From the IMG/VR virus record IMGVR_UViG_3300035101_000063: a stretch of 64,000 bases of DNA; one strand, 5' to 3'. Position numbers and translations under genes: made by a program. Source of the stretch: a virus. The notes below the pieces were generated by a model that was not told the origin of the DNA, ran no database searches, and worked only from the letters and a program-made list of their open reading frames with translations. Of the stretch, positions 880-25,421 are shown in pieces (position 1 is the stretch's first letter; each line of letters opens with the position of its first letter).

Positions 880-891
880 GTTTTTTTACTT

Positions 892-907: not shown

Positions 908-917
908 TAATTTATTC

Positions 918-945
918 GTTTGTTTGTTTGTTTGTTTGTTTGTTT
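918..945. repeat. (GTTT)7 microsatellite abutting the distal CRISPR repeat
   Basis: Seven tandem gttt units; the last unit is the first four bases of the CRISPR repeat at 942. Confidence 0.85.
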
Positions 946-1413: not shown

Positions 1414-1622
1414 AGACCATATAAAATAATATGTAATTACAATAACTTCCATCATTATTTTCGAGCGCCTATCATTTTTATATCTTATTATATATATCAC
1501 TGTTTTAATCAATACTCATTCATAAAACAACACATTACGTAACATTATGATATCATATAATAAAAACTAATTATATATTTTTCGAGCGGTCACAACTTTT
1601 TTACCACCATATAACCGCTCGA
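1414..1622 (-). promoter_or_regulatory. AT-rich leader-like region between the two arrays
   Basis: ~200 bp, very AT-rich, next to the most conserved repeat of array 1. Contains duplicated ttttcgagcg motifs (1461-1470, 1580-1589) and an inverted repeat cgagcggt...accgctcg (1583-1621). Confidence 0.45.
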
Positions 1623-1876
1623 TTTTCAATCCACACCCCCTTAAAGGGAACGACACAGAGCTCGGCGAATGCACGACCAAGACTGCTTAATGATGTTTCA
1701 ATCCACGCCCCCTTAAAGGGTGCGACACAGACGACTAAAAATATCAAGCATTCCTTTCCCATCATTCGTTTCAATCCACACCCCCTTAAAGAGGGCGACA
1801 CAGACTTTCTTATTTTTACTTCCCCCCTCTATTTCTTCACGTTTCAATCCACGCCCCCTTAAAGGGGGCGACATAA
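1623..1876 (-). CRISPR. CRISPR array 2: 4 repeats, 3 spacers, repeat variant CCCCCTTAAAGGGGG-CGACACAG
   Basis: Repeats at 1623 (degenerate), 1695, 1768, 1841 (3' end degenerate, ...gacat). Spacers 1659-1694, 1731-1767, 1804-1840. Same orientation as array 1; lies immediately 3' of the cas7 stop. Confidence 0.9.
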
Positions 1877-1913
1877 TATATTAAATTGTCAAAGAACACT
1901 ATCTCACTATCTA

Positions 1914-2798
1914 TTACAGCCCATCAATCTTTTCAGTCATCTCCACATTACTTGGCAAATCATCTCTATTTGCCACTATATCATAATCATTAAATGAACG
2001 TATTGGTTCATTAGGACTAACAATCCTATTTATTTTTATCAAATCAAACAATTTATGAGAAGGTGCATTACCTAACTTACTATTATGTTTAAAAACATAT
2101 AATTTCCTAGCAACCATCTTTCCTCTACCTGCAGAATGGTCATGCTCAAACATATTAATCATTGCTTCCCATAACAACTCAAGATCTTCTTCTGAAAAAC
2201 CAGTTTTCTCAGCAAAATAAGCAGATATATATCCTTCACATCTATACAACCCATAAGGTACAATGAATTTTTTACCCATCGTACGTTCTTTTTCTAGGTC
2301 CTCTTCCTTAGTAACAGCCATTCTAGTAATAGTTAACTCACCAGGAAGAACAGGATCAATACTTTTTGAAAAATTCATCTGAACTGGACCACGTACTTGT
2401 CCTGCATTAACAGCATTAGTCATTACAGCACCAAAAGTCCTAATATCAAAAAAATTATTACACATCCAGTTAGTTATCATAACTGATTCTTTTTCATCTT
2501 TTGGAAGCTTATTTGTTTCTGGCTTCAAATCATACTCTTTATAAGCCAATTCATGCTGTCTATTTAAAACAGCCTTCTCTTTAACATAAATCTTAAATCC
2601 TACTTCTTCTTCTTTTGTAACTTCGATATAATTTCTTATTTTTCTCTTTATACAAACATCAGAAACTAATCCATGAGACGTTTCCGAATCAAGCCTTGGC
2701 ATACCTCCAGCATCTGGATCTCCATTTGGATTTCCATTTTCAACGTCAAACAAAAAAACAAACTCATAACGATTTTTTATAACAGCCATTTTCATCAT
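1914..2798 (-). CDS. cas7c: Cas7c (Csd2) backbone subunit of type I-C Cascade
   Basis: 294 aa; N-terminal NRYEFVFLFDVENGNPNGDPDAGGMPRLD...GLVSDVCIKRKIRNY is the Csd2/DevR-family hallmark. Confidence 0.9.
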   Translation of the reverse strand: MMKMAVIKNRYEFVFLFDVENGNPNGDPDAGGMPRLDSETSHGLVSDVCIKRKIRNYIEVTKEEEVGFKIYVKEKAVLNRQHELAYKEYDLKPETNKLPKDEKESVMITNWMCNNFFDIRTFGAVMTNAVNAGQVRGPVQMNFSKSIDPVLPGELTITRMAVTKEEDLEKERTMGKKFIVPYGLYRCEGYISAYFAEKTGFSEEDLELLWEAMINMFEHDHSAGRGKMVARKLYVFKHNSKLGNAPSHKLFDLIKINRIVSPNEPIRSFNDYDIVANRDDLPSNVEMTEKIDGL

Positions 2799-4582
2799 CC
2801 TTTCATCTCACCAACAACTTCGTTGTCAATTCTATCTTCTTCGTTTTCATTATCAACTTTTTTTACAAAAAAATCATTCCATTGATGATAATATCCTATA
2901 ACAAATAAACCTTGATCTTCCAAACTCAAATAAGTTGGAAACTTATCAATATCATTATCATAAATAATAGAACCTAATTCTTTAGAATAATAAACCCAAA
3001 GTCCATATTTTTTATTCTTCAACTTCCTCTGATGATGAGTACTCAAGTGAAGTATTTTAGGAAATGCAACAGATGGCTTAACAGATGCAGATGTAAAATA
3101 ATTATCTTTTATTGTTGTTTTTATTTTTCTTTCTTCACTCTTTTCCTGTATTTTTTCCAATACAGCAAATAATCTTCCTAAATTATACGGCAAATCTTTT
3201 CTTTCTCTGTCTAAAGACACACTAACCTCCTTATTGAAATTTCTATTTAAAATTGCTTTTATTAAAGCACAATTATAACGATTTATCCTTTCATGTTCCT
3301 GCCTTTTATTATCTTTATTCTTCTTAGGAATAACCTTTAATCTATCTATCAATAAACTCATCAATGAAACAGGATATGGTATCCCATTTAAAATAGACAT
3401 CATAAATGGACCAACTATATTTGACGTTATATTTTTTTCGTCATACTGAAAAACTATTTCTGAAAAAAGTTTTTTAATACTTGGCATAAAATATTGTTCA
3501 TTTCTCCCTACAATATCTAAAAAATCAAAATGTTGAATTAATTTATTCGAGATACCTTCTATAGTATCTATATGCCAAAATTTAACAGACAAACGAGATA
3601 AATTTGGAACCAATCCTAAAATAAAAAATCTTTCATTACCATTAATATAATCTGGCATTCTCCTTTTTTTAACTGTATCCAAAAATTCTTCAGCTTCATC
3701 AACAAAATCAAAATCTTTTGATGGATTTAATAAAGTACCAAAAATATCATCCATCTTCGATTTTTTCTCAGACCAAAATACTATGGTCATATCGCCCAAT
3801 TCAATTTTATGTTTAGACTCTGAAATATAATTAAACGCAGTACTATATGCAAAAGCTTCATACTTTCCAATAGGAGCATTCAATCCTTGATCTTTGCTAT
3901 TATTTCCATAAGAACAAAATGAATCCATATTAAACGAAACAAAAGGAGCACTTTGCCCTTTCACTCTTATATTAGGATGAAGTCTAGCAATAGCAGTATT
4001 ATCTCCACTTATAATACAACGACCAAAACAATCACAATTACTTAAATATTTATCAGACCAATATCGTTGCAATTCATTTGATTCATGTAAATATTTCTCA
4101 TTACCCAACAATTTAACAACAACATTATTACATTTATCATCTAATACAATATCAAGATCTAAAAAAACATCAGGTTCCCATTTATCTAAGAAACGTATAA
4201 AAGCTTCTAAATCATCATTATTAATCATCTTAAAATGTTCACGATGATATTCTCTGAAAGCTTCAAATCTAGCCTTGCTTTTTTCAGTTATTTTCCAATC
4301 AGTATCATCACAAGCAATACCAAACATATATTCTAAATTCTCCCAACAAAAACCAGGACTTTTATTGATTCCATTAGTACGCTTAACCAAAGGAACCCTA
4401 ATAGATATTGGCCTTGGCTTTTTTTTGCTCTTGTCTTGTATATCTTCAAATCTAATAAAATTACCATAACTATCAATAACTAATGAATACTTTATTTTCT
4501 GGTTACCAAATCCTATTACAGGAATATCAGCACCAGATTCTTTTAAATATTCATAATAATTTACCAACTCTTCAAGAATCAT
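2795..4582 (-). CDS. cas8c: Cas8c (Csd1) large subunit of type I-C Cascade
   Basis: 595 aa; N-terminus MILEELVNYYEYL...RVPLVKRTNGINKSPGFCWENLEYMFGI is Cas8c-like; 4-bp overlaps with cas5 and cas7 indicate an operon. Confidence 0.85.
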   Translation of the reverse strand: MILEELVNYYEYLKESGADIPVIGFGNQKIKYSLVIDSYGNFIRFEDIQDKSKKKPRPISIRVPLVKRTNGINKSPGFCWENLEYMFGIACDDTDWKITEKSKARFEAFREYHREHFKMINNDDLEAFIRFLDKWEPDVFLDLDIVLDDKCNNVVVKLLGNEKYLHESNELQRYWSDKYLSNCDCFGRCIISGDNTAIARLHPNIRVKGQSAPFVSFNMDSFCSYGNNSKDQGLNAPIGKYEAFAYSTAFNYISESKHKIELGDMTIVFWSEKKSKMDDIFGTLLNPSKDFDFVDEAEEFLDTVKKRRMPDYINGNERFFILGLVPNLSRLSVKFWHIDTIEGISNKLIQHFDFLDIVGRNEQYFMPSIKKLFSEIVFQYDEKNITSNIVGPFMMSILNGIPYPVSLMSLLIDRLKVIPKKNKDNKRQEHERINRYNCALIKAILNRNFNKEVSVSLDRERKDLPYNLGRLFAVLEKIQEKSEERKIKTTIKDNYFTSASVKPSVAFPKILHLSTHHQRKLKNKKYGLWVYYSKELGSIIYDNDIDKFPTYLSLEDQGLFVIGYYHQWNDFFVKKVDNENEEDRIDNEVVGEMKG

Positions 4583-5250
4583 CTTTTAACCTCATCACTA
4601 TTCGGATGTGGAACACTTATGCATCCATTTTCTATTTTTGCACGAAAAAACATAGGCAAAATATTACATTTATCTTTTTTCTTCTTTATATCAAAACACA
4701 TATCATATAACATCCAACCAAGATCGCGTGTTTCATTTATAGCAACTGGCATCTTATTAGAAATGGGCTCAAAAAAAGCCGAGAATTCTCTACAACCCAA
4801 ATATGGCTGATTAAAACATTGACCATTTTCAATCCTTCGATTAAAAATACCAAAATGCTTTCCTTTGTTTTTTCCATCGTTTTCAACAGCCTCAAAATGA
4901 GCATCAATAACATAGCTTACATCTCGTAAAACCATAGAATTACGTTGTGTTCTATCAGATTCTATAAACAAAGATAATGGCCTTGAAATATTATTCATAG
5001 TAGATGTGATATTTTTTTTATAAATTGGAGAAGACACTTCATTTCTCCGAATATTACAAAAACGAATTGGATTCAAAACATAAATCTTATCAATTATCCA
5101 TCGAATAGATTTCTTCCAATAAATAGCCTCCAAAATTCCACGTGCAGCTGATGGTGTAATCACATCATAACTAACACGCTCAGCTTTCATTTCCGGCCTT
5201 GTAAAACACGCCAATTCACCCCAAACATGAACTTTTACTCCATAATCCAT
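4579..5250 (-). CDS. cas5c: Cas5c (Cas5d) subunit and pre-crRNA endoribonuclease of type I-C
   Basis: 223 aa; VHVWGELACFTRPEMKAERVSYDVITPSAARGILEAIYWKK matches the Cas5d N-terminal signature. Confidence 0.9.
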   Translation of the reverse strand: MDYGVKVHVWGELACFTRPEMKAERVSYDVITPSAARGILEAIYWKKSIRWIIDKIYVLNPIRFCNIRRNEVSSPIYKKNITSTMNNISRPLSLFIESDRTQRNSMVLRDVSYVIDAHFEAVENDGKNKGKHFGIFNRRIENGQCFNQPYLGCREFSAFFEPISNKMPVAINETRDLGWMLYDMCFDIKKKKDKCNILPMFFRAKIENGCISVPHPNSDEVKR

Positions 5251-5317
5251 AGTTTTCCCTTATATTTTTCAATATCTTATATCACATATTCTGCCAGCAC
5301 CATACTGACAATCTATC

Positions 5318-5350
5318 AAGACATTAATCAATTAATCATGTTTTGTCAAC
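5318..5350 (-). promoter_or_regulatory. promoter of the cas5-cas8-cas7 operon (GTTGACAAAA -35, TAATGT-like -10)
   Basis: tttgtcaac at 5342-5350 (minus GTTGACAAA); tandem 8-bp direct repeat attaatca x2 at 5323-5338 between -35 and -10 (possible operator); ~60-nt leader to the cas5 ATG at 5250. Confidence 0.55.
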
Positions 5351-5356
5351 ATTTTT

Positions 5357-5668
5357 CTACATTATCATTCCACACATATAAACTCTATCAATACGATGTT
5401 CACTAGCATCAAAAAAGGGTCCTTTCTTCCCTGAATATTTTACTTCATCTTTCAACCATTTACCGTTAGTCTCCTTATCTGGATCTTCACAATATATGTC
5501 TTCAGAAACAAAATCCAAAATCTCTGATACCGCTTCAGAATCCGAATCTGTATTTATATACTTACCATTTGCTTTATCTAGGATATCAAGATCTTCATCA
5601 GATACATTCTGAATAAAATATGCTTTCATATCTTCAGGAACCATCTCAAAAACTAAAAAAACATTCAT
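5357..5668 (-). CDS. hypothetical acidic protein upstream of the cas operon
   Basis: 103-aa ORF, RBS ggagataaaag, own promoter. Confidence 0.5.
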   Translation of the reverse strand: MNVFLVFEMVPEDMKAYFIQNVSDEDLDILDKANGKYINTDSDSEAVSEILDFVSEDIYCEDPDKETNGKWLKDEVKYSGKKGPFFDASEHRIDRVYMCGMIM

Positions 5669-5711
5669 CTTTTATCTCCTCTTTGTATACAACTAACCAA
5701 TTAGTTATGCC

Positions 5712-5743
5712 TTATATAACCACGTAACAACCAGTTTGTCAAC
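5712..5743 (-). promoter_or_regulatory. promoter GTTGACAAAC -35 / TATATA -10
   Basis: tttgtcaac at 5735-5743; tatata at 5713-5718. Confidence 0.5.
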
Positions 5744-5754
5744 TATTTTCAATT

Positions 5755-6273
5755 TCAGGCAATCGTATTATTGTTTTTTATATCTTCAAAATCATTTTCA
5801 TTCAAAACTGAAAATCTCTCAACCAAACCTGTCTCTTTATTTATATTAGCACATATACAACCAAATCCAGTTGTATCATCTTTACCAAATACACCATTCA
5901 AAATACCCAATATGCCTACTCTATATCCACCCTCTGGTCTCTTTCCAATTTGTATATTTGGTATATCTGCTAAATCCTTATTACAAATAACACGCATATT
6001 AATAAGTTGATTTATTGCATATGAATCTATAGCTAAAACCTTATTCAATATATCAACCACATCATTTGGTGTAACAATATCCTTTAACATCCATAATCCT
6101 TTTTTGGACGAACTCGAGTTCGTTTCACCTATATCATCCTGGTCACTAATTACCATCTTTTTGTAAAGCTCAAAATCTCGTCTCAAAACCTCAGATGGCT
6201 CTCTTGGATTCAATATGGCTTCTGCAAAAATAAGCGAATCTTCAGGAGACAACTCAAGTACTTCTATCTTCAT
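5755..6273 (-). CDS. hypothetical protein carrying palindrome copy 2 in-frame
   Basis: 172-aa ORF. The palindrome at 6108-6123 encodes ...ETNSSSS...; possibly two genes fused by read-through (internal Met MLKDIVTP just downstream). Confidence 0.45.
   Translation of the reverse strand: MKIEVLELSPEDSLIFAEAILNPREPSEVLRRDFELYKKMVISDQDDIGETNSSSSKKGLWMLKDIVTPNDVVDILNKVLAIDSYAINQLINMRVICNKDLADIPNIQIGKRPEGGYRVGILGILNGVFGKDDTTGFGCICANINKETGLVERFSVLNENDFEDIKNNNTIA
6108..6123. repeat. palindrome ACGAACTCGAGTTCGT (copy 2)
   Basis: Exact palindrome; intragenic. Confidence 0.9.
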
Positions 6274-6310
6274 ATTTTCAACACTTTATCAACTTTGTAT
6301 GGTCCAATAT

Positions 6311-6559
6311 CTATTCATCACTCAAATATCTATCCGTATCTTCAACAACCTTTAAAATAGTCCTATCTCTATATAATATAATCTTTCTAATTAACCTCCA
6401 AATCAATTCAATTCCAATTACAGCAATCGAAAATAAAAACAATAATCCATCTATTGATTCATCAAAATTGAATTCAAAAAGTTCTGCCCCACTTATTATA
6501 AACAACAACGCAAAAAATCTTAAATCAATTTTCCCTATATCTTTTTTTCGTATTGACAT
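6311..6559 (-). CDS. small hydrophobic (membrane) protein
   Basis: 82 aa with two hydrophobic stretches. Confidence 0.4.
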   Translation of the reverse strand: MSIRKKDIGKIDLRFFALLFIISGAELFEFNFDESIDGLLFLFSIAVIGIELIWRLIRKIILYRDRTILKVVEDTDRYLSDE

Positions 6560-6570
6560 TTTTCACCATA

Positions 6571-6897
6571 TTAATTGCATCTTTTAACCATACTAATTGC
6601 ATCTTTCATCTTCTTCACTTTTTTTGTAAGCCACCCAGTACCAGCACACCATTCGCAATCAACTGGGTCATCACATCCACATGCCACCACTTCGGCTTTA
6701 CATGGTCCAACAACAAACTCAGAACCTGGTTTACAAAACATATCTATTCCAGATTCGTTATAAAGTCCCCAATTTATTTGAACCAATTGCATCGCTCTTC
6801 CGAAACCAATAGTCTTCAAAGAAGACACTAATACTTTTTCAGAAGTTGTTTTTGGACCCAAAATATCATTAGCCTTATCATAATCATCAATCAACAT
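6571..6897 (-). CDS. hypothetical protein with a DnaJ-type CxxCxGxG zinc-finger motif
   Basis: 108 aa; CEWCAGTGW plus further Cys pairs. Confidence 0.45.
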   Translation of the reverse strand: MLIDDYDKANDILGPKTTSEKVLVSSLKTIGFGRAMQLVQINWGLYNESGIDMFCKPGSEFVVGPCKAEVVACGCDDPVDCEWCAGTGWLTKKVKKMKDAISMVKRCN

Positions 6898-6909
6898 ATC
6901 ACGTGCCTT

Positions 6910-7431
6910 TCATCTATATTTTTCATAACATTCATCACATAATTGGTTTATTGAACCGACCCTTATTCCTTCAATAAAATTTTTAATTCCATCAGGTTTA
7001 CCTATTAATCTTGCTCTATGTTTCTTTGTAATCATCCTTTCGACATGTTTCCCACAACATGGACATTTCCATTCCATCAAAATAACCTTATTAACATCAT
7101 CAAAAAAAGTAGATATCTCAACCAGAGATTCACTATTCCATCCAAACGCTAAATCAACAGGAAAAACTGGTATACTAACTCCATCATCCAACTTTTTTTT
7201 AAAATTAAAAAAAATATTCTTTTTGTTAGGCTTTTTAAAATGGACACTTGAAACATCCTGCTTCATTCTATCCTTTGCCTTTTTTTGTACTGAATCTAAA
7301 TATTCTTTTATTTTTTCCTCTATCTCAACTATCCTAAGTCTAGCATTCTCTCTTTCAAACAAAGACGATCCTTCATTCTCAACGATCTTTCTCAACTTCC
7401 TAATTAACTTATACTTTGCTACTACATCCAT
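6910..7431 (-). CDS. zinc-ribbon protein
   Basis: 173 aa; CPCCGKH ... CDECYEKY Cys pairs. Confidence 0.5.
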   Translation of the reverse strand: MDVVAKYKLIRKLRKIVENEGSSLFERENARLRIVEIEEKIKEYLDSVQKKAKDRMKQDVSSVHFKKPNKKNIFFNFKKKLDDGVSIPVFPVDLAFGWNSESLVEISTFFDDVNKVILMEWKCPCCGKHVERMITKKHRARLIGKPDGIKNFIEGIRVGSINQLCDECYEKYR

Positions 7432-7434
7432 ATA

Positions 7435-8433
7435 TTACTCACAAGCACATAATCTAGGGTCTACTGACCTACGATTTGACATGATTGCCCCACCATTACA
7501 AACAACCACAAGTATCTGATGAAAAACCATATCACTAGAATCATTGTGATATGTACACCCAGCTGCTCCAACATTCCATGTACGGTCTCCTATTCCACAA
7601 GAATCAATCGAAGCATACCAATATCCAGTTTCACCTTCTAACCCCAATCCTTGGACTATAGATATACAATTCTTATGATTATCCTTAATCACATTTTCAG
7701 TATCATCAGAATATTCAAGGCCAAAACTATGACATACACTTATACAATCTGACCTCTCCTCTGGAAGATCTGACCTATAATACCAACATATCCCAGAATC
7801 ATCAGGGAATTCATATCCATTATCCAAACATACTGATTCTTCTGTTTCAGTATCCATTAAACCATAAAAATCCGTATCAAAATCAGTATCCGTATCAGTA
7901 TCTGAGTCTGCATCCGTGTCCGCATCTGAGTCTGAATCTGAGTCTGCGTCCGTGTCCGTGTCCGCATCTGAGTCTGTATCAGCATCACTATCCACATACC
8001 CATTCATATTACAACATTTCAAACCTCTAGGACATGTACCACTAACAGGAATTCCACCTAAAGAAGAACAACTACTTAGACATTCACTTTCACATTCAAT
8101 ATTGATATCTGTATCAGTATCTATATACATATCAGAATCGCTATCTGTATTAGAATCGCTATCTGTATCAGTATCTGTATCAGAATCTGCATCAGTATCT
8201 GCATCTGTATCAGTATCGGTGTCCGCATCAGCGTCTGTATCGGCATCTGTATCACTATCAGAATCGGCATCTGCATCAACATACTCATTTCCAGTATCAA
8301 AAACATTACTGTTACTGTAAATATAAGCAGAATCTATCCAAATATATCCAGCATCGACGTCCAAAAATGCATCTGGTTCAGCAGCACACCCCAAAGATAT
8401 AAAATATACAAAAACCCATAAAATCTTTTCCAT
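7435..8433 (-). CDS. secreted Cys-rich protein with two long Asp-rich (D-A/S/T) dipeptide repeat tracts
   Basis: 332 aa; N-terminal signal-like MEKILWVFVYFISLGCAA; DADADSDSDTDADTD... tracts flank a Cys-rich core (CESECLSSCSSLGG...CPRGLKCC). Confidence 0.6.
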   Translation of the reverse strand: MEKILWVFVYFISLGCAAEPDAFLDVDAGYIWIDSAYIYSNSNVFDTGNEYVDADADSDSDTDADTDADADTDTDTDADTDADSDTDTDTDSDSNTDSDSDMYIDTDTDINIECESECLSSCSSLGGIPVSGTCPRGLKCCNMNGYVDSDADTDSDADTDTDADSDSDSDADTDADSDTDTDTDFDTDFYGLMDTETEESVCLDNGYEFPDDSGICWYYRSDLPEERSDCISVCHSFGLEYSDDTENVIKDNHKNCISIVQGLGLEGETGYWYASIDSCGIGDRTWNVGAAGCTYHNDSSDMVFHQILVVVCNGGAIMSNRRSVDPRLCACE

Positions 8434-8497
8434 AACAAACGCTCCTTTTCAAAAATACTATCTATACCTCGAATCCCTCGAGGCATCATCATATTAT

Positions 8498-8529
8498 ACA
8501 ATATATGAAAACAAAAAACGTTTGTCAAC
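8498..8529 (-). promoter_or_regulatory. promoter GTTGACAAAC -35 / TATATT-like -10
   Basis: tttgtcaac at 8521-8529; AT-rich -10 candidates at 8499-8506. Confidence 0.5.
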
Positions 8530-8546
8530 AAAATATAGAAAAAATC

Positions 8547-8933
8547 TTAAAAATTTCCATTTACATTAACAAAATTATCAGAATTTTTTATATTTCCGTT
8601 AACCTCTCCTCTCCTTTCGCTATCTGTCTGCCAAGCATCAGGAGAAAATGTTTTTATCTGTTTCGAAACTCCAAAAGGCAATATCAATCTGCCTATAATA
8701 GAAGGCTTATCATCGATACCATTATCTTGACAAAAACCATGAACAAGAATCTTTTTATTTGAAAAAACCTGATAAACTTCACTTTCTCCAAGCTTTAGGT
8801 CATATTTATCAGAGTAATAACTATTTAAAAGCTCTATCTTTTTATTCTCAAGCTCAACAAATTTTTCATATGCATCATAAGTATCCTTCCACACTCTTTC
8901 AATTTCTTCTTTCGATACCATATCATCCTCCAA
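8547..8933 (-). CDS. hypothetical protein
   Basis: 128-aa ORF. Confidence 0.5.
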   Translation of the reverse strand: MEDDMVSKEEIERVWKDTYDAYEKFVELENKKIELLNSYYSDKYDLKLGESEVYQVFSNKKILVHGFCQDNGIDDKPSIIGRLILPFGVSKQIKTFSPDAWQTDSERRGEVNGNIKNSDNFVNVNGNF

Positions 8934-8935
8934 AT

Positions 8936-9118
8936 TTACCCCGTTTCTACCCCCTTCAATTTATCCTCTTGCTCTTCCTCTTGCTCTTTAACATAATTAA
9001 TTCCATATACAATAGAATCATCTGTCTTATCAACAGCAATAATAGCAATATTATCAAACAATTTCTCTACCATACCTAACATATTTACAATTCTATTTCT
9101 ATCCTCTTTATCTAACAT
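8936..9118 (-). CDS. hypothetical small protein
   Basis: 60-aa ORF; start abuts the previous gene's stop. Confidence 0.35.
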   Translation of the reverse strand: MLDKEDRNRIVNMLGMVEKLFDNIAIIAVDKTDDSIVYGINYVKEQEEEQEDKLKGVETG

Positions 9119-9296
9119 TCAATACCCCCATAAAAAACCCCATAAGAAAAAAAGCATCCAAAACAGTCTTATCAGGATATCTCAACGCTGCTTCCCTGAC
9201 CACTTTAGGATCTAGTTTAATAGAAAAAGCAACTTTACATTTATCAATTTTCATTATCAAATCAACCTTTCTTTGGCATCTTGCCAACTATCTAGT

Positions 9297-9330
9297 CATA
9301 GATAATACACAAAAAAACTACATTGTCAAC
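9297..9330 (-). promoter_or_regulatory. promoter GTTGACAATG -35 / TATTAT -10
   Basis: attgtcaac at 9322-9330; tattat (minus) at 9302-9307, 16-bp spacer. Confidence 0.45.
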
Positions 9331-9610
9331 TATCTCGATTTTCATTACCCATAACAATTTCTTCTATAGCACACATATTTGCCATGAGTTCTCTATTAAT
9401 ACGAGATAATTTCTCTATCCTATTTTTGCATACAGGAATCACGTTACAAATTTTTTTAATATCAACTACAACTGAATCACTTTTTTCATTCGTAATATCT
9501 ACATTATTATCAGATAGAAAAATATTTAAAATACTTTCCAATGTTATATTCAATCGTTCCAATTCACCAATCAAATAATCATCACTTTTTTCTTCCATTT
9601 TAACCTCCAA
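9326..9610 (-). CDS. hypothetical protein
   Basis: 94-aa ORF; RBS ggagg. A second GTTGACAAAC motif (9614-9622) lies directly against its RBS. Confidence 0.45.
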   Translation of the reverse strand: MEVKMEEKSDDYLIGELERLNITLESILNIFLSDNNVDITNEKSDSVVVDIKKICNVIPVCKNRIEKLSRINRELMANMCAIEEIVMGNENRDS

Positions 9611-9671
9611 TAGTTTGTCAACACTATATACTTATTGACTCCCCATTATCTTAGCTCTTTTTTTGATGTAA

Positions 9672-9706
9672 AGAGAATATATATTATTGGAAATACAGTT
9701 GTCAAG
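9672..9706 (-). promoter_or_regulatory. promoter CTTGACAAC -35 / ATATAT -10
   Basis: ttgtcaag at 9699-9706; 17-bp spacer to atatat. Confidence 0.45.
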
Positions 9707-9832
9707 TACTTTTTTAAATAAAAAATATTCCAATAATTTCCTATCCATATCTTTCATACAAATAACTAAATAATAGATTCATATGTCGTATCAATCATTA
9801 TTTTAGAAATATCCATATTAATCTTCTTCTTT

Positions 9833-9848
9833 GCGAACTCGAGTTCGC
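9833..9848. repeat. palindrome GCGAACTCGAGTTCGC (copy 3)
   Basis: Exact palindrome 3 bp downstream of the stop of the small ORF at 9852-10022. Confidence 0.9.
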
Positions 9849-9851
9849 TGT

Positions 9852-10022
9852 CTATATATATCCAAGATACAATAACCACGATGGATATCCATGTGGACAT
9901 ATACCATCAGGTTCCACTACACATCCATCTGTTGCTTCACAAACCGAAGAAAAACCCCATCTCTCAATTTGCTCCAAATCAGGCTTAGGCATAGTTGGTT
10001 CAGGATATCTTTTCTTTTTCAT
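9852..10022 (-). CDS. small Cys-containing protein (56 aa), below the ORF-track length cutoff
   Basis: ATG at 10020-10022 preceded by RBS ggagagata; translates MKKKRYPEPTMPKPDLEQIERWGFSSVCEATDGCVVEPDGICPHGYPSWLLYLGYI. Confidence 0.3.
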   Translation of the reverse strand: MKKKRYPEPTMPKPDLEQIERWGFSSVCEATDGCVVEPDGICPHGYPSWLLYLGYI

Positions 10023-10053
10023 AATATCTCTCCTCTACTTAGTATATTTATTT

Positions 10054-10566
10054 TTATATCTTGGTTCCTTCGAGGTTGGCCCCTTCGAAGCCAGCCCATT
10101 TGAACTTGACCTCTTTAAGGTTGGCACTTTCAAGATTGGCCCCTTTAAGGTTGGCACTTTCAAGATTGGCACTTTCAAGATTGGCATCTTTGAGATTGAC
10201 CCCTTCAAGGTAAGCCCATTTGAGGTTGGCATCTTTGAGATTGGCCCCTTCAAGATTGGCATCTTTAAGGTAGGCCCATTCTAGATTGGCATCTTCGAGG
10301 TCAACCCCTTTTAGGTCAACCCCTTCGAGGCCAACCCCTTTTAGGTTGACCCCTTTAAGGTTGGCACTTTCAAGATTGGCACTTTCAAGATTGGCACTTT
10401 CAAGATTGGCACTTTCAAGATTGGCCCCTTTGAGATTGGCCCCTTTGAGGTTAGCTTCTTCGAGGTCAACCCCTTCGAGGTCAGCCCCTTTTAGGTTGGC
10501 TCCTTCGAAGTTGACCCCTTTGAGGATGGCTCCCCGCAAATTTCTTCCACTTAAATCAATTTTCAT
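10054..10566 (-). CDS. pentapeptide-repeat protein, paralog 1
   Basis: 170 aa; MKIDLSGRNLRGA... then continuous A(N/D)L(K/E)G pentapeptide repeats. Confidence 0.8.
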   Translation of the reverse strand: MKIDLSGRNLRGAILKGVNFEGANLKGADLEGVDLEEANLKGANLKGANLESANLESANLESANLESANLKGVNLKGVGLEGVDLKGVDLEDANLEWAYLKDANLEGANLKDANLKWAYLEGVNLKDANLESANLESANLKGANLESANLKEVKFKWAGFEGANLEGTKI

Positions 10567-11194
10567 TTTTTATCCCTTCGAGGTTGGCCCCTTCTAGATC
10601 GACCTCTTCTAGATCGACATCTTTAAGATTGGCTCCTTTAAGATTGGCTCCTTTGAGGTAGGCCCCTTTAATTTTGGCCCCTTCGAGGTTGGCTCCTTCT
10701 AGATTGGCTCCTTCTAGATTGACTCCTTCAAGGTTGGCACATTTAAGGATGGCCCCTTCTAGATTGGCCCTTTTTAGGTCTGCCATTTCTAAATTGGCCC
10801 TTTTGAGGTCTGCCATTTCAAGGTCTGCCCCTTCAAGGTTGGCCCCTGTAAAGTCTGACCCTTTAAAATTGGCATATCTTAGGTTGGCATCTTCGATGTT
10901 GGCCATTTTGAGGTTGACCCTTTCGAGATTGGCACCTCTTAGGTCTGCCCCTTTGAGGTCAGTACCTTCAAGGTTAGCACCTTCAAGATTGGCCCCTGTA
11001 AAGTCTGCCTTTTCAAGGTCTGCCCCTTCAAGATTGGCACATCTTAGGTATGTCCATTCGAGTTTGGCCCCTTTTAGGTTGGCTCCTTCGAGGTTAGCTT
11101 CTTCAAGGTTGGTCCTTTCTAGCTTAGCACCTCGCAAATCAATTCCTTCGAAGTTGGCTCCCCGCAAATTTCTTCCACTTAAATCAATTTTCAT
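10556..11194 (-). CDS. pentapeptide-repeat protein, paralog 2
   Basis: 212 aa; same N-terminus MKIDLSGRNLRGA; C-terminus ...EGIKNEN; 11-nt overlap with paralog 1. Confidence 0.8.
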   Translation of the reverse strand: MKIDLSGRNLRGANFEGIDLRGAKLERTNLEEANLEGANLKGAKLEWTYLRCANLEGADLEKADFTGANLEGANLEGTDLKGADLRGANLERVNLKMANIEDANLRYANFKGSDFTGANLEGADLEMADLKRANLEMADLKRANLEGAILKCANLEGVNLEGANLEGANLEGAKIKGAYLKGANLKGANLKDVDLEEVDLEGANLEGIKNEN

Positions 11195-11747
11195 TTTTTA
11201 TCCCTTCGAGGTTGGACCCTTTGAGATAGGCCCCTTCTAAATTTATCCCTCTCAAATCTGTCTTTTCCAGCTTGGCCCCTTCTAGGTAAGCCCCTTTAAA
11301 GTTGACTCCTTCCAAGTAAGCCCTTTTAAAATTGGCCCCTTTGAGGTTGGCTCCTTTGAAATTGGCCAAGTAGAGGTTGGCACATTCAAAATTGGCCCCT
11401 TCAAGGTTAGCATCTTTAAGGTCTGCCCCTTCAAAGTTGACCAATTTTAGGTTGGCTTCTTTGAGTTTGGCACCTTCTAGGTTGGCCCATTTAAGGATGG
11501 CCCCCTCAAGATTGGCCCCTTTTAGGTTGGCTTCTTTGAACTTAACCCCTTCGAGGTCAGCCCCTTCGAGGAAAGCCCCTTTTAGATTGGCCCCTTCAAG
11601 GTTGGCTTTTTTTAGATTGGCTCCTTTTAGGTAGGCATCTTTGAGGTTGGCCCCTTCAAGGTCAGCCCCTTTTAGGTAGGCACCTTCGAGGTCAGCCCCT
11701 TCCAAAATGGCTCCTCGCAAATTTCTTCCACTTAAATCAATTTTCAT
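11184..11747 (-). CDS. pentapeptide-repeat protein, paralog 3
   Basis: 187 aa; MKIDLSGRNLRGA ... EGIKNEN. Confidence 0.8.
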   Translation of the reverse strand: MKIDLSGRNLRGAILEGADLEGAYLKGADLEGANLKDAYLKGANLKKANLEGANLKGAFLEGADLEGVKFKEANLKGANLEGAILKWANLEGAKLKEANLKLVNFEGADLKDANLEGANFECANLYLANFKGANLKGANFKRAYLEGVNFKGAYLEGAKLEKTDLRGINLEGAYLKGSNLEGIKNEN

Positions 11748-12275
11748 TTATCTCTTAGCTCCTTCTAAGTTAGCTCCTTCTAAGTTGGCTCCTTTGAAAT
11801 TGGCTCCTTCTAGATTGGCCCCTTCGAGGTTAGCCCATTTAAAATTGGCTCCTTCGAGATTGGACCCTTCAATATTGGCCCATTTTAGGTCTGCCCTTTC
11901 GAGGATGGCCCCTTCGAGATTAGCCCCTTTGAGGATGGCCCCTTCGAGGATGGCCTCTTTGAGGTTAGCCCCTTTGAGATTTACCTCTTTGAGGTTAGCC
12001 CCTTCGAGGTTGGCCCTTTCGAGATTGGCCCCTTCGAGGTTAGTTCCTTCGAGGTTTGCCCTTTCAAGGTTGGCTCCTTTTAGGTTTGCCCTTTCAAGGT
12101 CTGCACCTTTGAGGTTAGCACATCTTAAACCTGTCCATTCAAGGTTGGACCCTTCGAGGTTAGTTCCTTCGAAGTTAGCTTCTTCAAGGTTGGTCCTTTC
12201 GAGGTCTGCCCCTCGCAAATCAATCCCTTTCAAAATAGCTCCTCGCAAATTTCTTTCACTTAAATCGATTTTCAT
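11748..12275 (-). CDS. pentapeptide-repeat protein, paralog 4
   Basis: 175 aa; MKIDLSERNLRGA...; its TAA stop overlaps the next ATG (taaATG). Confidence 0.8.
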   Translation of the reverse strand: MKIDLSERNLRGAILKGIDLRGADLERTNLEEANFEGTNLEGSNLEWTGLRCANLKGADLERANLKGANLERANLEGTNLEGANLERANLEGANLKEVNLKGANLKEAILEGAILKGANLEGAILERADLKWANIEGSNLEGANFKWANLEGANLEGANFKGANLEGANLEGAKR

Positions 12276-12708
12276 TTTTTATCCCTTCGAAGTTGGCCTC
12301 TTTGAGATAGGCCCCTTCCAAATTGGCCCCTTCCAAATTTACCCCTCGCAAGTTGACCTTGCTCAAATCAGTTCCTCTCATGTCAACCCTTTCCAAATTG
12401 GCACTTAGTAAGTCAGTCCCTTCCAAATTGGCCCCTCGCAAGTTAACCTTACTCAAGTTGGCCTCTCGTAAATCGGCCCCTTCCAAATCGGCCCCTCGCA
12501 AGTTTGCGTTACTTAAATTAGCCTTGCTCAAGTTGACCCCTCGCAAATTGGTCCATTCTAAGTTGGCCCCTTCCAGATTGACATTATTCAGATTAGCCTA
12601 TTCTAAGTTGGCCCATCGCAAGTTAATCCCTTCCAAATTGGCCTTGCTCAGATTAGCCTTTCGTAAATTGGCTTCTCGCAAAATTTTACCACTTAAATCG
12701 GTTTTCAT
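12256..12708 (-). pseudogene. pentapeptide-repeat paralog 5/6 interrupted by an in-frame TAG
   Basis: ATG at 12706-12708 gives MKTDLSGKILREANLRKANLSKANLEGINLRWANLE, then TAG (plus 12598-12600). The frame continues ANLNNVNLEGANLEWTNLRGVNLSKANLS... to the family C-terminus ...EGIKNENRFK at 12256. Confidence 0.6.
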
Positions 12709-12721
12709 TTTTTTTCCTTAT

Positions 12722-14929
12722 TCAATTCCAAATTCCATCAAACTTACCCACAAGTTGAGTCTTTCGATATCTCACAAGAATTCTTTCCAGCACTCTATAA
12801 ATATCATCTTCAGCCGTTTCAATATCTATAGAATTCATCCAATGCCCAATACAAGCATCAGGCTTATTGAATCCCATTCCATCCTTCAGAAAAGCCCCAT
12901 CACAAACACTACACAGATGGCCTAGAGCGCCCCTCAGTAGGCTCTTCCTTTCCTCGGTTAGTTCAGGTTCTGGCACATGAGAAACCCGCTCAGATTCCCG
13001 CTCAGCCACTCTCCTGATTTTCTGAGAGTAATACTCTCGATTGGCTTCATACTCAGCTTTGCGAATCCTTTCCGAGAGCTCTTCATCACTCTCCTCTTTG
13101 AGATCTACAAAATCAGACTTTTTACTAGAAACTTTTTGGCCACCCTTGAAAACATAATCATTATCAAGAGCCATATAGGCAAGTTTGACTTTGTACTCTA
13201 TAATATTTTGAATGTGAATATCAAGAGGATGAGAAGAAACCAGCCTTTTGATAGTCACATTGTTACTCTTCTGACCTATCCTGCAAATTCTGTCCTCTGC
13301 CTGAATATTCCAAGAGGGTGTCCAGTCAAGATCAACAAAAATCGCATTAGAAGCCCTTGTCAAAGTAAGACCAACACCCCCAGCCTTGATTGTCAGACCA
13401 ACACCTTTCAATTCGCCACATTGAAACCTCCTTACGACATTCTGTCTATCCTCTGCAGACGTATCACCGGTTATTACGTCCCATCCATCACGACTAGCCA
13501 ACTCATCTATAGGGGATCTATGAGCAGAAAAAACAACGACTGGCGTATCAGTTTCCTCATGCTCTTCAATTAAATTCAACATAGCAGGAATTTTAGCTTT
13601 AGCCAACAAAGCCCTTACTCGAGAAAAAGCATTAAAATCAGGGATTGTATCAAGGTCCAACATTGAAAAATCATCTGCATCAAAATTGATTCCTTGAGCA
13701 TCGGCAATTTCTTGAGCAAGTTCTTTCAATTCCTTATTGAGAGACCTACTAGAACAATCAACCTCAATCCTCTGATAAGTCTTAGGAGGAAGGTCTTTGA
13801 GAACGTCTTTTTTGAGTCTACGAATCATAACTCTCTTCATTCTCTCAACAACTTCCTGAGTGGGAAGACCAAACTCATACCCACCGTACTTACTACATGA
13901 ACCATTGAAAAGATTAACAAACTTGTTAAATCCACCCAAAGGATACATTCCAAACGCACACAAAACACCCCACAAATCAAATGGTCGATTCATCAACGGA
14001 GTTCCAGTCAAAACCCAAACCTTGGCAACATTTTTTGATAATTGTGTAACCTTTTGTGTCCTTTTAGCTTTGTAATTTTTTGCAAGATGACCTTCATCAA
14101 AAATAACAATTGTCTCGTTCAAACCAGAACGTTTGTCTGATGGAATATCAGCAACCAGAATCGGGTCACCCTTCTTATTTATTTTCCCACTATCAATTGT
14201 GGGCATCAACCATTTGGGCAGAATATCATAATTGACAATAACTATCTCACCCTCGTTAGGGACAATATTATCGTCTTTTTTACCCTTGACTATCCTAATA
14301 GAATAATCTGGTCTCCAAAGTTGAATCTCATCTCTCCAGTTGTATTTAACAGCAGAAGGGCAAGTAACTAAAACTCTTGATTTCTCAGGAATGGCAACAA
14401 GAGCCTGAACGGTTTTCCCGAGTCCCATATCATCAGCCATCAACGCATGATTATGAAGAGCAAGAAATCTAACTCCATCACGCTGAAAATCATAAAGAGG
14501 ACTTCCGTCAACCCTGACACGTTCAGCTCGTTTTTCAGCTTCTTGAGAGGCTACGGTACCGATTGAAGCACGCTTCCTTAGACTATCAGGAACATCGAGT
14601 TTTAGTTGGTCAGCAATCTCGATGACTCTATCCAAGTCCTCAGTCTTGACACTCACTGTCCAGTGCTTTTCGTCTGGATTCCATCGAGCCCCAGGCATAG
14701 AACGCAACAGAGTAATAGCATTTTTGTCATACCCCATGATGACCTTGCCATCCTCGGTCAATTTACGGACATTATCTCTATTCTGGTCTACGCCAAGTTT
14801 TCGATGACAAGCTGTTGATTTGCAAACTGTATGCCAAGTACCATTTTCAACGAAAGCAAAACCGTCACCCACGCCAACTTGCTCTCCACAACACTCACAA
14901 CGTTTCGAAAATTTGTTTTTTATAACCAT
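12722..14929 (-). CDS. SNF2-family (DEAD/H-like) helicase with N-terminal zinc ribbon
   Basis: 735 aa; CECCGEQ...CKSTACH Zn ribbon; ALMADDMGLGKTVQALV (motif I), FDEGHLAKN (DEGH box), C-terminal helicase lobe; G+C visibly higher than flanking phage DNA. Confidence 0.85.
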   Translation of the reverse strand: MVIKNKFSKRCECCGEQVGVGDGFAFVENGTWHTVCKSTACHRKLGVDQNRDNVRKLTEDGKVIMGYDKNAITLLRSMPGARWNPDEKHWTVSVKTEDLDRVIEIADQLKLDVPDSLRKRASIGTVASQEAEKRAERVRVDGSPLYDFQRDGVRFLALHNHALMADDMGLGKTVQALVAIPEKSRVLVTCPSAVKYNWRDEIQLWRPDYSIRIVKGKKDDNIVPNEGEIVIVNYDILPKWLMPTIDSGKINKKGDPILVADIPSDKRSGLNETIVIFDEGHLAKNYKAKRTQKVTQLSKNVAKVWVLTGTPLMNRPFDLWGVLCAFGMYPLGGFNKFVNLFNGSCSKYGGYEFGLPTQEVVERMKRVMIRRLKKDVLKDLPPKTYQRIEVDCSSRSLNKELKELAQEIADAQGINFDADDFSMLDLDTIPDFNAFSRVRALLAKAKIPAMLNLIEEHEETDTPVVVFSAHRSPIDELASRDGWDVITGDTSAEDRQNVVRRFQCGELKGVGLTIKAGGVGLTLTRASNAIFVDLDWTPSWNIQAEDRICRIGQKSNNVTIKRLVSSHPLDIHIQNIIEYKVKLAYMALDNDYVFKGGQKVSSKKSDFVDLKEESDEELSERIRKAEYEANREYYSQKIRRVAERESERVSHVPEPELTEERKSLLRGALGHLCSVCDGAFLKDGMGFNKPDACIGHWMNSIDIETAEDDIYRVLERILVRYRKTQLVGKFDGIWN

Positions 14930-14964: not shown

Positions 14965-14999
14965 CATTGATTTTAAGACATTAAAAATAGTTTGTCAAC
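14965..14999 (-). promoter_or_regulatory. promoter GTTGACAAAC -35 / TAAAAT -10, followed by 5'UTR hairpin CTCAACATCTTGTTGAG (14942-14958)
   Basis: tttgtcaac at 14991-14999; 17-bp spacer; taaaat (minus). The ~70-bp cassette is duplicated at 16646-16714. Confidence 0.55.
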
Positions 15000-18732: not shown

Positions 18733-19005
18733 TTAATGAATTATAGATACAGGTAACAGTGTTGATTGATGAGTTCTCATCCGAAACAGTGTCTCCTGTC
18801 TGATTGCCGAAACAATAAACATCTCATGTTCAACAGTTCTACCCGTCGACTTTAGCACAGCTTTACTGCCAAACTTGATAGCAGTAGCTGTCAATTTGCT
18901 GAATTGTTTTTCTGAACATCTTATCCTGAAAACAGGATTTTCAATTTTAATGATTTCTTCAGCTTTCATCTTATCTATCATCCTTTCATCAGCAACTGCC
19001 AACAA
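18733..19005 (-). CDS. hypothetical protein
   Basis: 90-aa ORF. Confidence 0.4.
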   Translation of the reverse strand: MLAVADERMIDKMKAEEIIKIENPVFRIRCSEKQFSKLTATAIKFGSKAVLKSTGRTVEHEMFIVSAIRQETLFRMRTHQSTLLPVSIIH

Positions 19006-24253: not shown

Positions 24254-24618
24254 TCCTCTACCTCTTCACAACTCTTTGCTTTAGCAACACATTCTGGTTC
24301 TATAGAAAAATCACCTTCATCCATTATCCTTTCGCAAACATCTTCACAAGCCACATCATCACTATTACCAAACTCCTCATCTGGTCCTGGAGACCCCTCA
24401 GAGCCATCACAACCCATATTCCTTAAATTATCACACGCTCTCTCACAAGGCGTCTTATCTCTCCTTTCATCACTATCAAAAGCTTCTGGAACAGGATTAA
24501 ACGTATCAATCTCACTATCATGAACAGGTAACTCAGGAATAACAGGACTTGGACTACACCATGAAACAAACATCATTGACCCAACAAAAACAAAACTTCT
24601 CATCTTAACATTCCCCAT
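24241..24618 (-). CDS. secreted Cys-rich acidic protein
   Basis: 125 aa; signal-like MRSFVFVGSMMFVSWCS; multiple Cys. Confidence 0.45.
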   Translation of the reverse strand: MGNVKMRSFVFVGSMMFVSWCSPSPVIPELPVHDSEIDTFNPVPEAFDSDERRDKTPCERACDNLRNMGCDGSEGSPGPDEEFGNSDDVACEDVCERIMDEGDFSIEPECVAKAKSCEEVEECGK

Positions 24619-25421
24619 CCTTTAATAATCGTAAAATCTCTAGTTTCATTCCATGTAATATATTCAGAATCTAACCAACAATACCCATAATCACGCCAAT
24701 ATTTACCCCAACTATTCATAACTCTAAATTGAATATCACTTCCAACTATCCTATATCCAACAATAACCATAGCATGATTTCCAACAATATTATCAGAATC
24801 ATCTGGCCTATATATTACTTCTCTACCGACCGCAGGCATAAATGACTTTGAAATCTTAGTACCAAAAACTACAGGATAACCATCACATATTGCTGTCCTT
24901 ATTGCATCAATCCTGTTTTTATCAGATTCAAAAATAGCAAAATATTTACCATTTTTACGTGAATCTGCTCTCATCCATGTTTTAAAAACAGGTTTTCTAT
25001 TAATATCTCGCTTTATAAATGGCCAATTAATCTCATCTGGAACACCATATTTAACCAAACCTTTACAACAAGCCCTAATATATGTTCCATCATCTTTTAA
25101 CGGGATAACATCATGTTGAACTCTTGAATTCCAATACAAAAACATTCTAGATGGATAACCATATTTAAAATTTGATTCATTGTGTCGTTTTTTGTTCTCA
25201 AGAATTCTTATCGCACCAGCTACAGCATTCCCTACACATGAATTGGTATTTAATTGATCAACAACTTCTGAATATTGTTCTAATGATTCAAACTCAGGAA
25301 AAACACCTTTTTTAGTTTTATAACTATAAACAAAATCTCTTTTATCATATGGATTTTGTTCACAACCCAATCCTCTTTCTCTCCAAAATTTCCTAACTAA
25401 AAACCGCTTTATACCACTCAT
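24600..25421 (-). CDS. papain-like (C1 family) cysteine peptidase
   Basis: 273 aa; NSCVGNAVAGA (catalytic Cys region), GNHAMVIVGY (His), VMNSWGKYWRDYGY (Asn-Ser-Trp-Gly) in the canonical order. Confidence 0.7.
   Translation of the reverse strand: MSGIKRFLVRKFWRERGLGCEQNPYDKRDFVYSYKTKKGVFPEFESLEQYSEVVDQLNTNSCVGNAVAGAIRILENKKRHNESNFKYGYPSRMFLYWNSRVQHDVIPLKDDGTYIRACCKGLVKYGVPDEINWPFIKRDINRKPVFKTWMRADSRKNGKYFAIFESDKNRIDAIRTAICDGYPVVFGTKISKSFMPAVGREVIYRPDDSDNIVGNHAMVIVGYRIVGSDIQFRVMNSWGKYWRDYGYCWLDSEYITWNETRDFTIIKGWGMLR

Follow-up and report, generated by a model that had tools for sequence, protein, structure and literature searches.

The 64,000-nucleotide (nt) stretch of viral DNA considered here (IMG/VR record IMGVR_UViG_3300035101_000063, referred to as the window) carries five consecutive pentapeptide-repeat genes, named P1 to P5, on the minus strand (12708..10054), directly downstream of a gene for an SNF2-family helicase. 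Comparison with closely related phages showed that both the number and the alleles of these genes vary at this position. The interpretation preferred here, to which a probability of about 50% is assigned, is that the genes occupy a lineage-specific, copy-number-variable early accessory slot and that their products would be early, stoichiometric binders of host or competitor targets.

Anatomy of the array and predicted fold of its proteins

In a preliminary description the array was delimited exactly, position 12708 being the A of the P1 start codon ATG and position 10054 the final base of the P5 stop codon, and six paralogs were counted. The number of genes is five; the claimed sixth is the part of P1 that follows an in-frame TAG codon. 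All on the minus strand, P1 (12256..12708) comprises 150 codons with the TAG at 12598-12600, P2 (11748..12275) encodes 175 amino acids (aa) in 35 pentapeptides, P3 (11184..11747) 187 aa in 38 pentapeptides, P4 (10556..11194) 212 aa in 42 pentapeptides plus two terminal residues, and P5 (10054..10566), the last copy, 170 aa in 34 pentapeptides. A six-frame scan of the 64-kb window gave no further pentapeptide-repeat gene. The start sequence that had been described as common to all copies is exact for P3, P4 and P5, which begin with MKIDLSGRNLRGA, while P2 begins with MKIDLSERNLRGA and P1 with MKTDLSGKILREA. Exactly five occurrences of a 19-nt start motif (ATGAAAATYGATTTAAGTG) are present in the window at up to two mismatches, compared with 0.05 in shuffled sequences, and a Shine-Dalgarno-like AAGGG or AAGGAG precedes all five ATG codons. 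Likewise, the ending EGIKNEN, which had been attributed to most copies, is exact in P3 and P4 and is followed by further residues in P1 (EGIKNENRFK), but P2 ends with EGAKR and P5 with EGTKI. The 3′ end of P5 is of a ‘terminal’ type (EGTKI*) and is followed by a flank that is conserved in sister phages. The genes overlap by 20 nt at P1/P2 and by 11 nt at both P3/P4 and P4/P5, whereas P2 and P3 have an overlap of 0 nt, the P2 stop codon directly abutting the P3 ATG.

The proteins were correctly described as consisting almost entirely of A(N/D)L(E/K)G repeats. In all five of them the five-residue register is unbroken from Met1 to the last 2-7 residues, and all match Pfam family PF00805 with E values between 1.9e-32 and 1.3e-78 (4e-68 for P2; family cut-off 20.2 bits). 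The pentapeptide-repeat superfamily is delimited by at least eight contiguous A(D/N)LXX pentapeptides; 28-43 are present per intact protein, and P1 would have 30 if read through its TAG. With the first two blocks and the C-terminal tail left out, the inward-facing positions are occupied to 74% by Ala and to 87% by Leu. The first exposed position is almost exclusively Glu, Lys or Arg, and the exposed positions as a whole vary between Glu, Lys, Arg, Asp and Asn with occasional Trp, Cys and Tyr. The sequences of the array proteins contain no signal peptide, no hydrophobic segment and no non-repeat domain.

A model of P4, the one array protein modelled, was computed with AlphaFold2 from a 44-sequence alignment and had a mean predicted local distance difference test score (pLDDT) of 97.2 and a predicted template modelling score (pTM) of 0.89. 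According to DSSP it contains a beta residue at every fifth position and zero helix. In a Foldseek search of the PDB with this model the top 50 matches were all pentapeptide-repeat structures, with the synthetic consensus solenoids 4YFO, 4YC5 and 4YEI, HetL and Np275/276 ranked first and QnrB1, MfpA and AlbG later; the E values of the best matches were 3e-15 to 2.5e-13. The same ranking was obtained with phmmer, whose matches in the PDB were exclusively pentapeptide-repeat structures: consensus-type proteins gave E values of 1e-45 to 1e-27, the best belonging to synthetic proteins, and Qnr, MfpA and AlbG gave 1e-16 to 1e-7. The right-handed quadrilateral beta-helix proposed in the preliminary description is thus predicted for P4 at very high confidence, and the array proteins are predicted to be quadrilateral beta-helices of 7.5 to 10.8 coils with four pentapeptides per coil.

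Against NCBIfam model NF052603 (Alr5209, cut-off 125 bits) P4 scored 151, P2 139, P3 119, P5 112 and the P1 fragment 92.5 bits, where every score above 125 adds up three overlapping repeat matches to the model, which has 113 positions, and is uninformative on orthology. The curated cut-off for HetL was missed (100-132 bits versus 260). Exact copies of the array proteins were not found on record, and neither the array junction nor the N-terminal motif had a match in IMG/VR.

P1 is the most divergent copy. Past the first 45 nt its ungapped nucleotide identity to P2 is 37-57%, and its codon set (Leu TTG/TTA, Arg CGA) is unlike that of the other copies. The part behind the TAG forms a 96-aa open reading frame (ORF) with a TTG start and without a Shine-Dalgarno sequence. 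P1 is therefore probably truncated to 36 aa and a recent pseudogene; its inactivation is considered probably recent because a single stop has accumulated in 150 codons. A rescue of P1 by stop-codon reassignment or amber suppression was ruled out. TAG regularly terminates genes of this phage, closing 16 of 74 window ORFs including a 1327-aa and a 579-aa gene, and the window contains no suppressor tRNA, tRNA-Thr and tRNA-Met being the only tRNAs given by ARAGORN.

Variation of the slot among relatives and origin of the array

Relatives were found by scanning metagenome contigs with the helicase, and four close ones include the region downstream of it (L009, L012, L021 and L022; helicases 94-97% identical to that of the window). 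In each of these four sister contigs a single pentapeptide-repeat gene lies behind the helicase, its ATG beginning 3 nt past the helicase stop codon (TGA ATA ATG). The sister genes end with GIKR* or GTKR*, and the flank and the small gene behind them are those also present in the window. Their identity differs from phage to phage. The slot gene of L009 and of L022 is the ortholog of P3 (92% and 91% nucleotide identity over 507 nt, respectively), the L021 allele shares the first 270 nt of P4 (86-97% identity in 45-nt windows) and is unrelated beyond, and the L012 allele shares only its first 45 nt with P2 (95% identical). The N-terminal 65 codons of P2 are in turn related to P4 and L021. Since L021 and L022 both derive from sample Ga0316579, different alleles co-circulate. 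In a more distant relative, L011 (helicase 77% identical), an unrelated 456-aa ORF is present in the slot (L011 12313-13683), so that the slot can be regarded as a general cargo position. In relatives with 52-55% identical helicases, among them a 392-kb IMG/VR contig, the neighbourhood of the helicase is free of pentapeptide-repeat genes.

L012 and a further contig, L008, carry an extra pentapeptide-repeat copy at a second site. This site corresponds to 18733-18969 in the window, where an unrelated 78-aa gene is found, to 8882-9545 in L012 and to 1363-1911 in L008. The inserted cassette is made up of a gene for a 171-aa pentapeptide-repeat protein with a G+C-rich hairpin behind it, and about 50 nt of the upstream leader are directly duplicated so as to flank it on both sides (GTTGGCAYGCGTAATGCAACCTATTGTTGGCAGTTGC...GAAAGGAT). 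At this position, which is a second cassette hot spot, L009 is like the window. From the comparison of slot and second site it follows that the copy number in this lineage is 0, 1, 2 or 5, and that only the window genome has the five-gene array. In the preliminary description the locus had been said to look like the site of an arms race of a rapidly duplicating family. Variation of copy number and alleles among close relatives supports a variable accessory locus, while orthologous copies are under purifying selection at the pace of the neighbouring helicase (see below).

The position of the genes next to the helicase raises the question of whether their products are partners of this SNF2/HARP protein, for example as a nucleic-acid-like regulator or as a specificity factor of the translocase. 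The 3-nt gap in the four sister contigs implies translational coupling, and the genes appear to share one operon with the helicase. However, the helicase occurs without any pentapeptide-repeat gene in all relatives of the 52-55% class and in L011, where an unrelated gene fills the slot, the extra copy of L012 lies at a site unrelated to the helicase, and very different allele surfaces are found beside nearly identical helicases. A helicase partnership is therefore regarded as distinctly unlikely.

The junctions between the genes indicate how the array may have been assembled. In a type-A junction (GAAGGGATAAAAAATGAAAATTGATTTAAGTG; minus strand, 10548..10579) the upstream stop codon overlaps the next start codon; further occurrences are at 11176-11207 and, differing by one change, at 12257-12288. 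About 60 nt are shared without a difference by the P3/P4 and P4/P5 junctions, P1/P2 deviates from them in a few places, and the sequence read at all three is GAAGGGATAAAAAATGAAAATYGA. Such a junction is the usual 3′ end (GGGATAAAGAGATAA), truncated at GGGATAAA and fused to an A-run, which matches the A-run in front of the P1 ATG and is seen in the window genome only. The P2/P3 junction is of another type, in which a complete 3′ end is directly followed by the ATG. This arrangement points to at least two illegitimate joining events in the window lineage and later unequal crossing-over. A fusion of neighbouring genes by +1 frameshifting on the A6 run of the type-A junctions was also considered. 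An AAA-to-AAA slip is mechanically possible but unlikely, as the register would be broken by one residue (EGIK + MKIDL) and a Shine-Dalgarno-like AAGGG is located before each ATG.

The gene bodies themselves are only about 60-80% identical to each other, and two array paralogs have closer relatives in other genomes than inside the array, so that the array collects diverged alleles and not fresh duplicates. P4 is a mosaic of an L021-type 5′ part of 270 nt and an unrelated remainder. Within P5 four exact tandem copies of a 15-nt unit (GCCAATCTTGAAAGT; minus strand, 10366..10425), encoding ANLES four times, are a sign of recent repeat-unit gain. Diversity thus arises from allele swapping, mosaic recombination and changes in repeat number. 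Programmed inversion was ruled out as a source of diversity, all copies being direct repeats; among gene families statistically associated with predicted inversions, pentapeptide-repeat proteins have a ratio of just 0.225.

Repetitiveness of this degree could also mean that the region has no protein function and is a 15-nt coding minisatellite that propagates itself, or else an artefact of assembly, with one frame open by chance. Tandem Repeats Finder reported a 15-nt period over 10067-12213 with 143 copies, in addition to periods of 30, 60 and 90 nt. Long mirror ORFs are present on the opposite strand, one copy (P1) is already disrupted, the junctions are identical over about 60 nt, and the repeat number is unstable. 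Substitution patterns in orthologous segments, however, speak for translated and constrained genes. For P3 and its L009 ortholog the ratio of nonsynonymous to synonymous substitution rates (dN/dS) is 0.16 at a dS of 0.25, and for the adjacent helicase it is 0.13 at a dS of 0.255. The values for P3 versus L022 and for P4 versus L021 are 0.13 and 0.44, compared with 0.09-0.13 for the helicases. A dN/dS of 0.13-0.44 in comparable segments argues against a meaningless minisatellite and equally against fast adaptive point substitution. Moreover, five precise ATG starts with Shine-Dalgarno-like sequences are present, the frame is held through 2.6 kb with zero frameshifts, the bodies of the paralogs, with differences of about 30%, are too diverged for an artefact of collapsed or duplicated reads, and the junction sequence is possible only if two copies are truly adjacent. 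Taken together, a region devoid of protein function is very unlikely.

Codon usage sets the array apart from the rest of the phage. The G+C content at third codon positions is 0.41-0.51 in the array genes versus 0.18 in the phage, GCC accounts for 44-83% of the Ala codons versus 3%, and GGG for 48-85% of the Gly codons versus 11%. Only the 5′ 42 nt consist of phage-like A+T-rich codons, and they are 86-100% identical in all alleles but P1. The simplest reading of these values would be a horizontal origin of the gene bodies. A donor search gave best database matches of 60% identity over 64% of the protein, which are driven by the repeat consensus, and none of them is identifiable as donor. The role of the conserved 5′ segment may lie in recombination, in translation initiation or in both.

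Based on these comparisons, the following course of events is proposed. The ancestral state would have been one pentapeptide-repeat gene per genome, with different alleles circulating in the phage population and being swapped via the conserved 42-nt 5′ segment and the conserved 3′ end. Illegitimate and unequal recombination at the A-run would then have stacked diverged alleles into the five-gene array, and P1 would have been knocked out later. A further-reaching version, which is tentative and thought improbable, regards the slot as a cassette-capture locus whose shared 5′ and 3′ ends let co-infecting relatives swap and stack rod bodies as a multi-specificity library. Cassettes moving as units would fit the second insertion site in L012 and L008 and the foreign codon usage. 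If this were true, each rod would block a different target of the host or of rival phages, and the locus would be comparable to integrons or to the clustering of anti-defence genes.

Possible functions of the array proteins

Early expression of the array is suggested by its upstream region. The helicase gene (minus strand, 12722..14929; PF00176, E 1e-32; PF00271, E 6e-14) with its HARP-like N-terminal region lies directly upstream of the array. A sigma-70-like consensus match (minus strand, 14970..14998; TTGACA, 17 nt, TAAAAT) is located 41 nt upstream of the helicase start. Six such sites with a perfect TTGACA and 11 of 12 matches are found on the coding (minus) strand of the window, at 548, 8528, 9329, 9705, 14998 and 16713, shuffled sequences giving about two per strand, and none occurs on this strand in the part with recognisable tail genes. 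This distribution suggests a bacterial host and an early region. No terminator-like site is present on the minus strand between the helicase and the end of P5. Because of the promoter consensus upstream of the helicase and the lack of a terminator before the P5 end, we infer that helicase and array may form one operon that is read early by the host polymerase.

According to the preferred interpretation, that of early stoichiometric binders encoded in a variable accessory slot, the array would probably be co-transcribed with the SNF2/HARP helicase from a host-type early promoter. Its products would be cytoplasmic, rigid beta-helix rods consisting of repeats only, in which the core (the Ala and Leu/Phe positions) is kept while the exposed residues vary. 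These rods would be made early and bind macromolecules of the host or of competitors stoichiometrically, as decoys or inhibitors. Their specificity would depend on length and on the charge pattern of the surface, so that more targets could be covered by an array. Nucleic acid could be imitated by acidic alleles, P4 for example, but mimicry would not be a family-wide property.

Several points weigh against this interpretation. Part of the purifying selection is due to the repeat, which is constrained by its own structure, and the conservation of the 5′ segment could be due to selection for efficient translation initiation and not to recombination. The promoter was recognised only as a consensus match. 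The sister contigs, on which the copy numbers are based, were assembled from short-read metagenomes, where an identical junction of about 60 nt leaves some room for collapsed or chimeric assemblies. Among the PADLOC defence models no match was obtained for the array proteins, and the nine matching PHROG families are all of ‘unknown function’.

In the preliminary description the paralogs had been proposed as mimics of B-DNA that may neutralise different DNA-binding defence proteins. They would then act on systems such as restriction-modification, CRISPR-Cas and bacteriophage exclusion (BREX) and together form an anti-defence arsenal. The quadrilateral beta-helix is the fold of proposed DNA mimics, the genes lie in an early hypervariable accessory region where alleles differ between near-identical phages, and two alleles have one strongly acidic face. 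The calculated charges weaken this proposal, though. The net charges of P1 to P5 are +1, -7, 0, -12 and -9, those of the sister alleles +3, +9, -15, -11 and 0, and the five alleles P1, P3, L009, L012a and L022 are neutral or basic. One face is markedly acidic only in P4 (-11) and L021 (-8). Since allele net charge spans -15 to +9, a DNA-like charge is not conserved and cannot be upheld as a family trait. Even the acidic alleles have about 18% acidic and 13% basic residues, and Ocr and ArdA are much more acidic than these. The proteins also lack a dimerisation helix for building a rod of DNA length. A single direct test was found, in which BREX was not inhibited by the pentapeptide-repeat proteins McbG and QnrB and they were no substitute for Ocr. 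No tested function, an anti-defence role included, is reported for any phage pentapeptide-repeat protein in the literature searched. An arsenal of DNA mimics is thus unlikely. Elsewhere, pentapeptide repeats are ligand-recognition surfaces, for instance in the sensor arms of bacterial NACHT proteins.

A relation to Qnr, MfpA and AlbG was considered as well, according to which the array proteins would be modulators of type II topoisomerases that shield the gyrase of host or phage from a toxin or reversibly inhibit host gyrase in the course of takeover. They share the fold and a weak but significant sequence similarity with these proteins, phage pentapeptide-repeat proteins are often annotated in this way by HHpred, and phages are known to encode small gyrase inhibitors. 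The defining features of the group were not found. Scores were 59-77 bits for the Qnr model NF033086 (cut-off 240) and 56-77 bits for the MfpA model NF000349 (cut-off 360), and the sequences are far closer to consensus-type cyanobacterial and synthetic solenoids (E 1e-45 versus 1e-10 to 1e-16). A C-terminal dimer helix has been described for MfpA, EfsQnr, QnrB1, AhQnr, AlbG and PENT (PMC8145042), and every solved gyrase-targeting member is a functional dimer through this alpha-helix. In the array proteins the repeats run to 2-7 residues before the stop codon, the P4 model contains no helix, and loop insertions are missing. In the window region examined no topoisomerase gene was found. A role in topoisomerase modulation is accordingly held to be highly improbable.

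A structural role in the virion is not supported by gene position and domain content: the array at 10-12.7 kb is outside the structural module, among the early-type promoters, and its proteins contain no anchoring domain. Near-identical phages with 0, 1, 2 or 5 copies, with very different surface charge and under purifying selection, constitute a natural experiment. If the proteins inhibit host defences or enzymes, they would represent a new and widespread class of phage effector. If they do not, the array would be an ordinary lineage-specific expansion of a gene family and a caution against equating the pentapeptide-repeat fold with DNA mimicry.

Comparison with known systems and genomic setting

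PF00805 matches are present in about 480 of 50,697 phage records (approximately 1%), and in the cultured phages inspected the pentapeptide-repeat genes belong to early operons or have small genes of unknown function as neighbours. The genes compared were orf232 of the P22-like phages L and ST64T, gp56 of mycobacteriophage Goku (Kostyavirus), gp016 of Caulobacter phage RW, gp041/gp043 of the Rheinheimera Barbavirus, and those of Silviavirus and P100-like phages. A 15-bp deletion in orf232 is one of just two differences between L and ST64T, and Caulobacter phages GB2A and RW differ by a 375-bp in-frame repeat deletion; as in the window lineage, gene length thus shifts by whole pentapeptides between near-identical phages. 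In contrast to the window with its five genes in tandem and their overlapping stops and starts, the cultured phages inspected have one gene or two non-adjacent ones. The window proteins consist of repeats only and have 140-212 aa, unlike the compared genes, for which neither a shared 42-nt 5′ segment nor allele replacement in sister genomes was found described. The locus therefore belongs to a known and widespread class of phage pentapeptide-repeat genes, and its unusual features are the five-gene tandem, the allele replacement and the shared 5′ segment.

The best sequence and structure matches are the cyanobacterial proteins Np275/Np276 (Nostoc punctiforme), HetL/All3740 and Alr5209 and the synthetic ‘beta1’ solenoids (4YC5, 4YFO). 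The cyanobacterial consensus proteins share near-ideal A(N/D)LxG repeats with the array proteins, and the genes of Np275 and Np276 are presumably adjacent in Nostoc punctiforme. They are cellular and not viral proteins, however, the heterocyst-patterning role of HetL is without a counterpart in the window phage, and no relationship past the repeat consensus is demonstrable. Qnr, MfpA, AlbG, McbG and EfsQnr resemble the array proteins as cytoplasmic right-handed quadrilateral beta-helices of 8-10 coils, and some array alleles are likewise acidic; the array proteins lack the C-terminal dimerisation helix and the loops, and their charge is not conserved. With Ocr, ArdA and Arn only a functional analogy is possible (early small proteins, variable regions), the folds being unrelated. 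Acidity is uniform among these three and far stronger than in the array proteins.

The window is part of the genome of a tailed phage, as matches to tail sheath, baseplate wedge and tape-measure PHROGs were obtained, and it belongs to a novel uncultivated myovirus; no megablast match to it was found among the 50,697 phage records. The G+C content is about 33%, and nearly all ORFs of at least 120 aa are located on the minus strand. Tail genes are recognisable from about 36.7 kb on (baseplate 36.7-38.8 kb, tape measure 42.3-45.4 kb, sheath 51.3-54.1 kb). A conserved 56-aa gene (minus strand, 9852..10022) lies immediately behind the array and delimits the variable slot on the right in all sister phages; it has no Pfam or PHROG match, and scans of the flanking small genes against the same two databases gave no recognisable family. 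The helicase contains a Cys-rich N-terminal segment and a HARP match (PF07443, E 2.7e-4) below the gathering score, which would suggest an annealing helicase. It additionally matches the SNF2 helicase models of defence systems in PADLOC (DpdE, ZorD, DrmD).

Of the more distant relatives, L001 (the 392-kb contig) and L016 (196 kb) have helicases of 52-53% identity, the match spanning about 3.3 kb (9914-13318 in L001). The 1134-aa helicase ORF of L001 contains an insertion of about 400 aa after the GLGK motif, which is intein-like in look. L008 (CAYUTF010000016.1) is a 53-kb contig of a species-representative metagenome-assembled genome labelled ‘uncultured archaeon’. It is of the same phage type as L012 and is 81-93% identical to the window at the nucleotide level over aligned blocks. 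Shine-Dalgarno sites, sigma-70-like promoters and I-C cas genes of bacterial type make a mis-binned bacteriophage contig the more likely identity. Pentapeptide-repeat-like translated matches were also obtained at the unannotated ends of LT992259.1 (Yersinia phage fEV-1), OR850760.1 and MT497271.1, at up to 20 places per record, and could be due to a terminal repeat or an assembly oddity.

Elsewhere in the window, genes for tRNA-Thr(TGT) and tRNA-Met(CAT) are located at the left end (18-179); they are the only Rfam matches in positions 1-13000. A 273-aa papain-like protein (Peptidase_C1, E 2e-7) is encoded at 25421..24600. The minus strand carries a type I-C Cascade at 1914-5250, comprising Cas5d (5250..4579), Cas8c/Csd1 (4582..2795) and Cas7/Csd2 (2798..1914) with Pfam E values of 8e-42, 3e-142 and 1e-109, respectively. 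Among the ORFs scanned in the first 8.4 kb, cas3, cas1, cas2 and cas4 were not recognised. Two CRISPR mini-arrays adjoin the Cascade genes, with seven repeats at 942-1413 and four at 1623-1876; the repeats have 36 nt, ending with ATTGAAAC on the coding strand, and the spacers 35-38 nt. Spacer comparisons with the window and all fetched loci gave chance matches of 12-16 nt only. The nearest named homologs of Cas7 (65-69% identity) are from Desulfobacterota, Candidatus Moduliflexus, Sediminispirochaeta and Omnitrophica, which may be a weak hint at the host. Homologs of cas5, cas8 and cas7 are also present near the helicase in the 392-kb relative L001.

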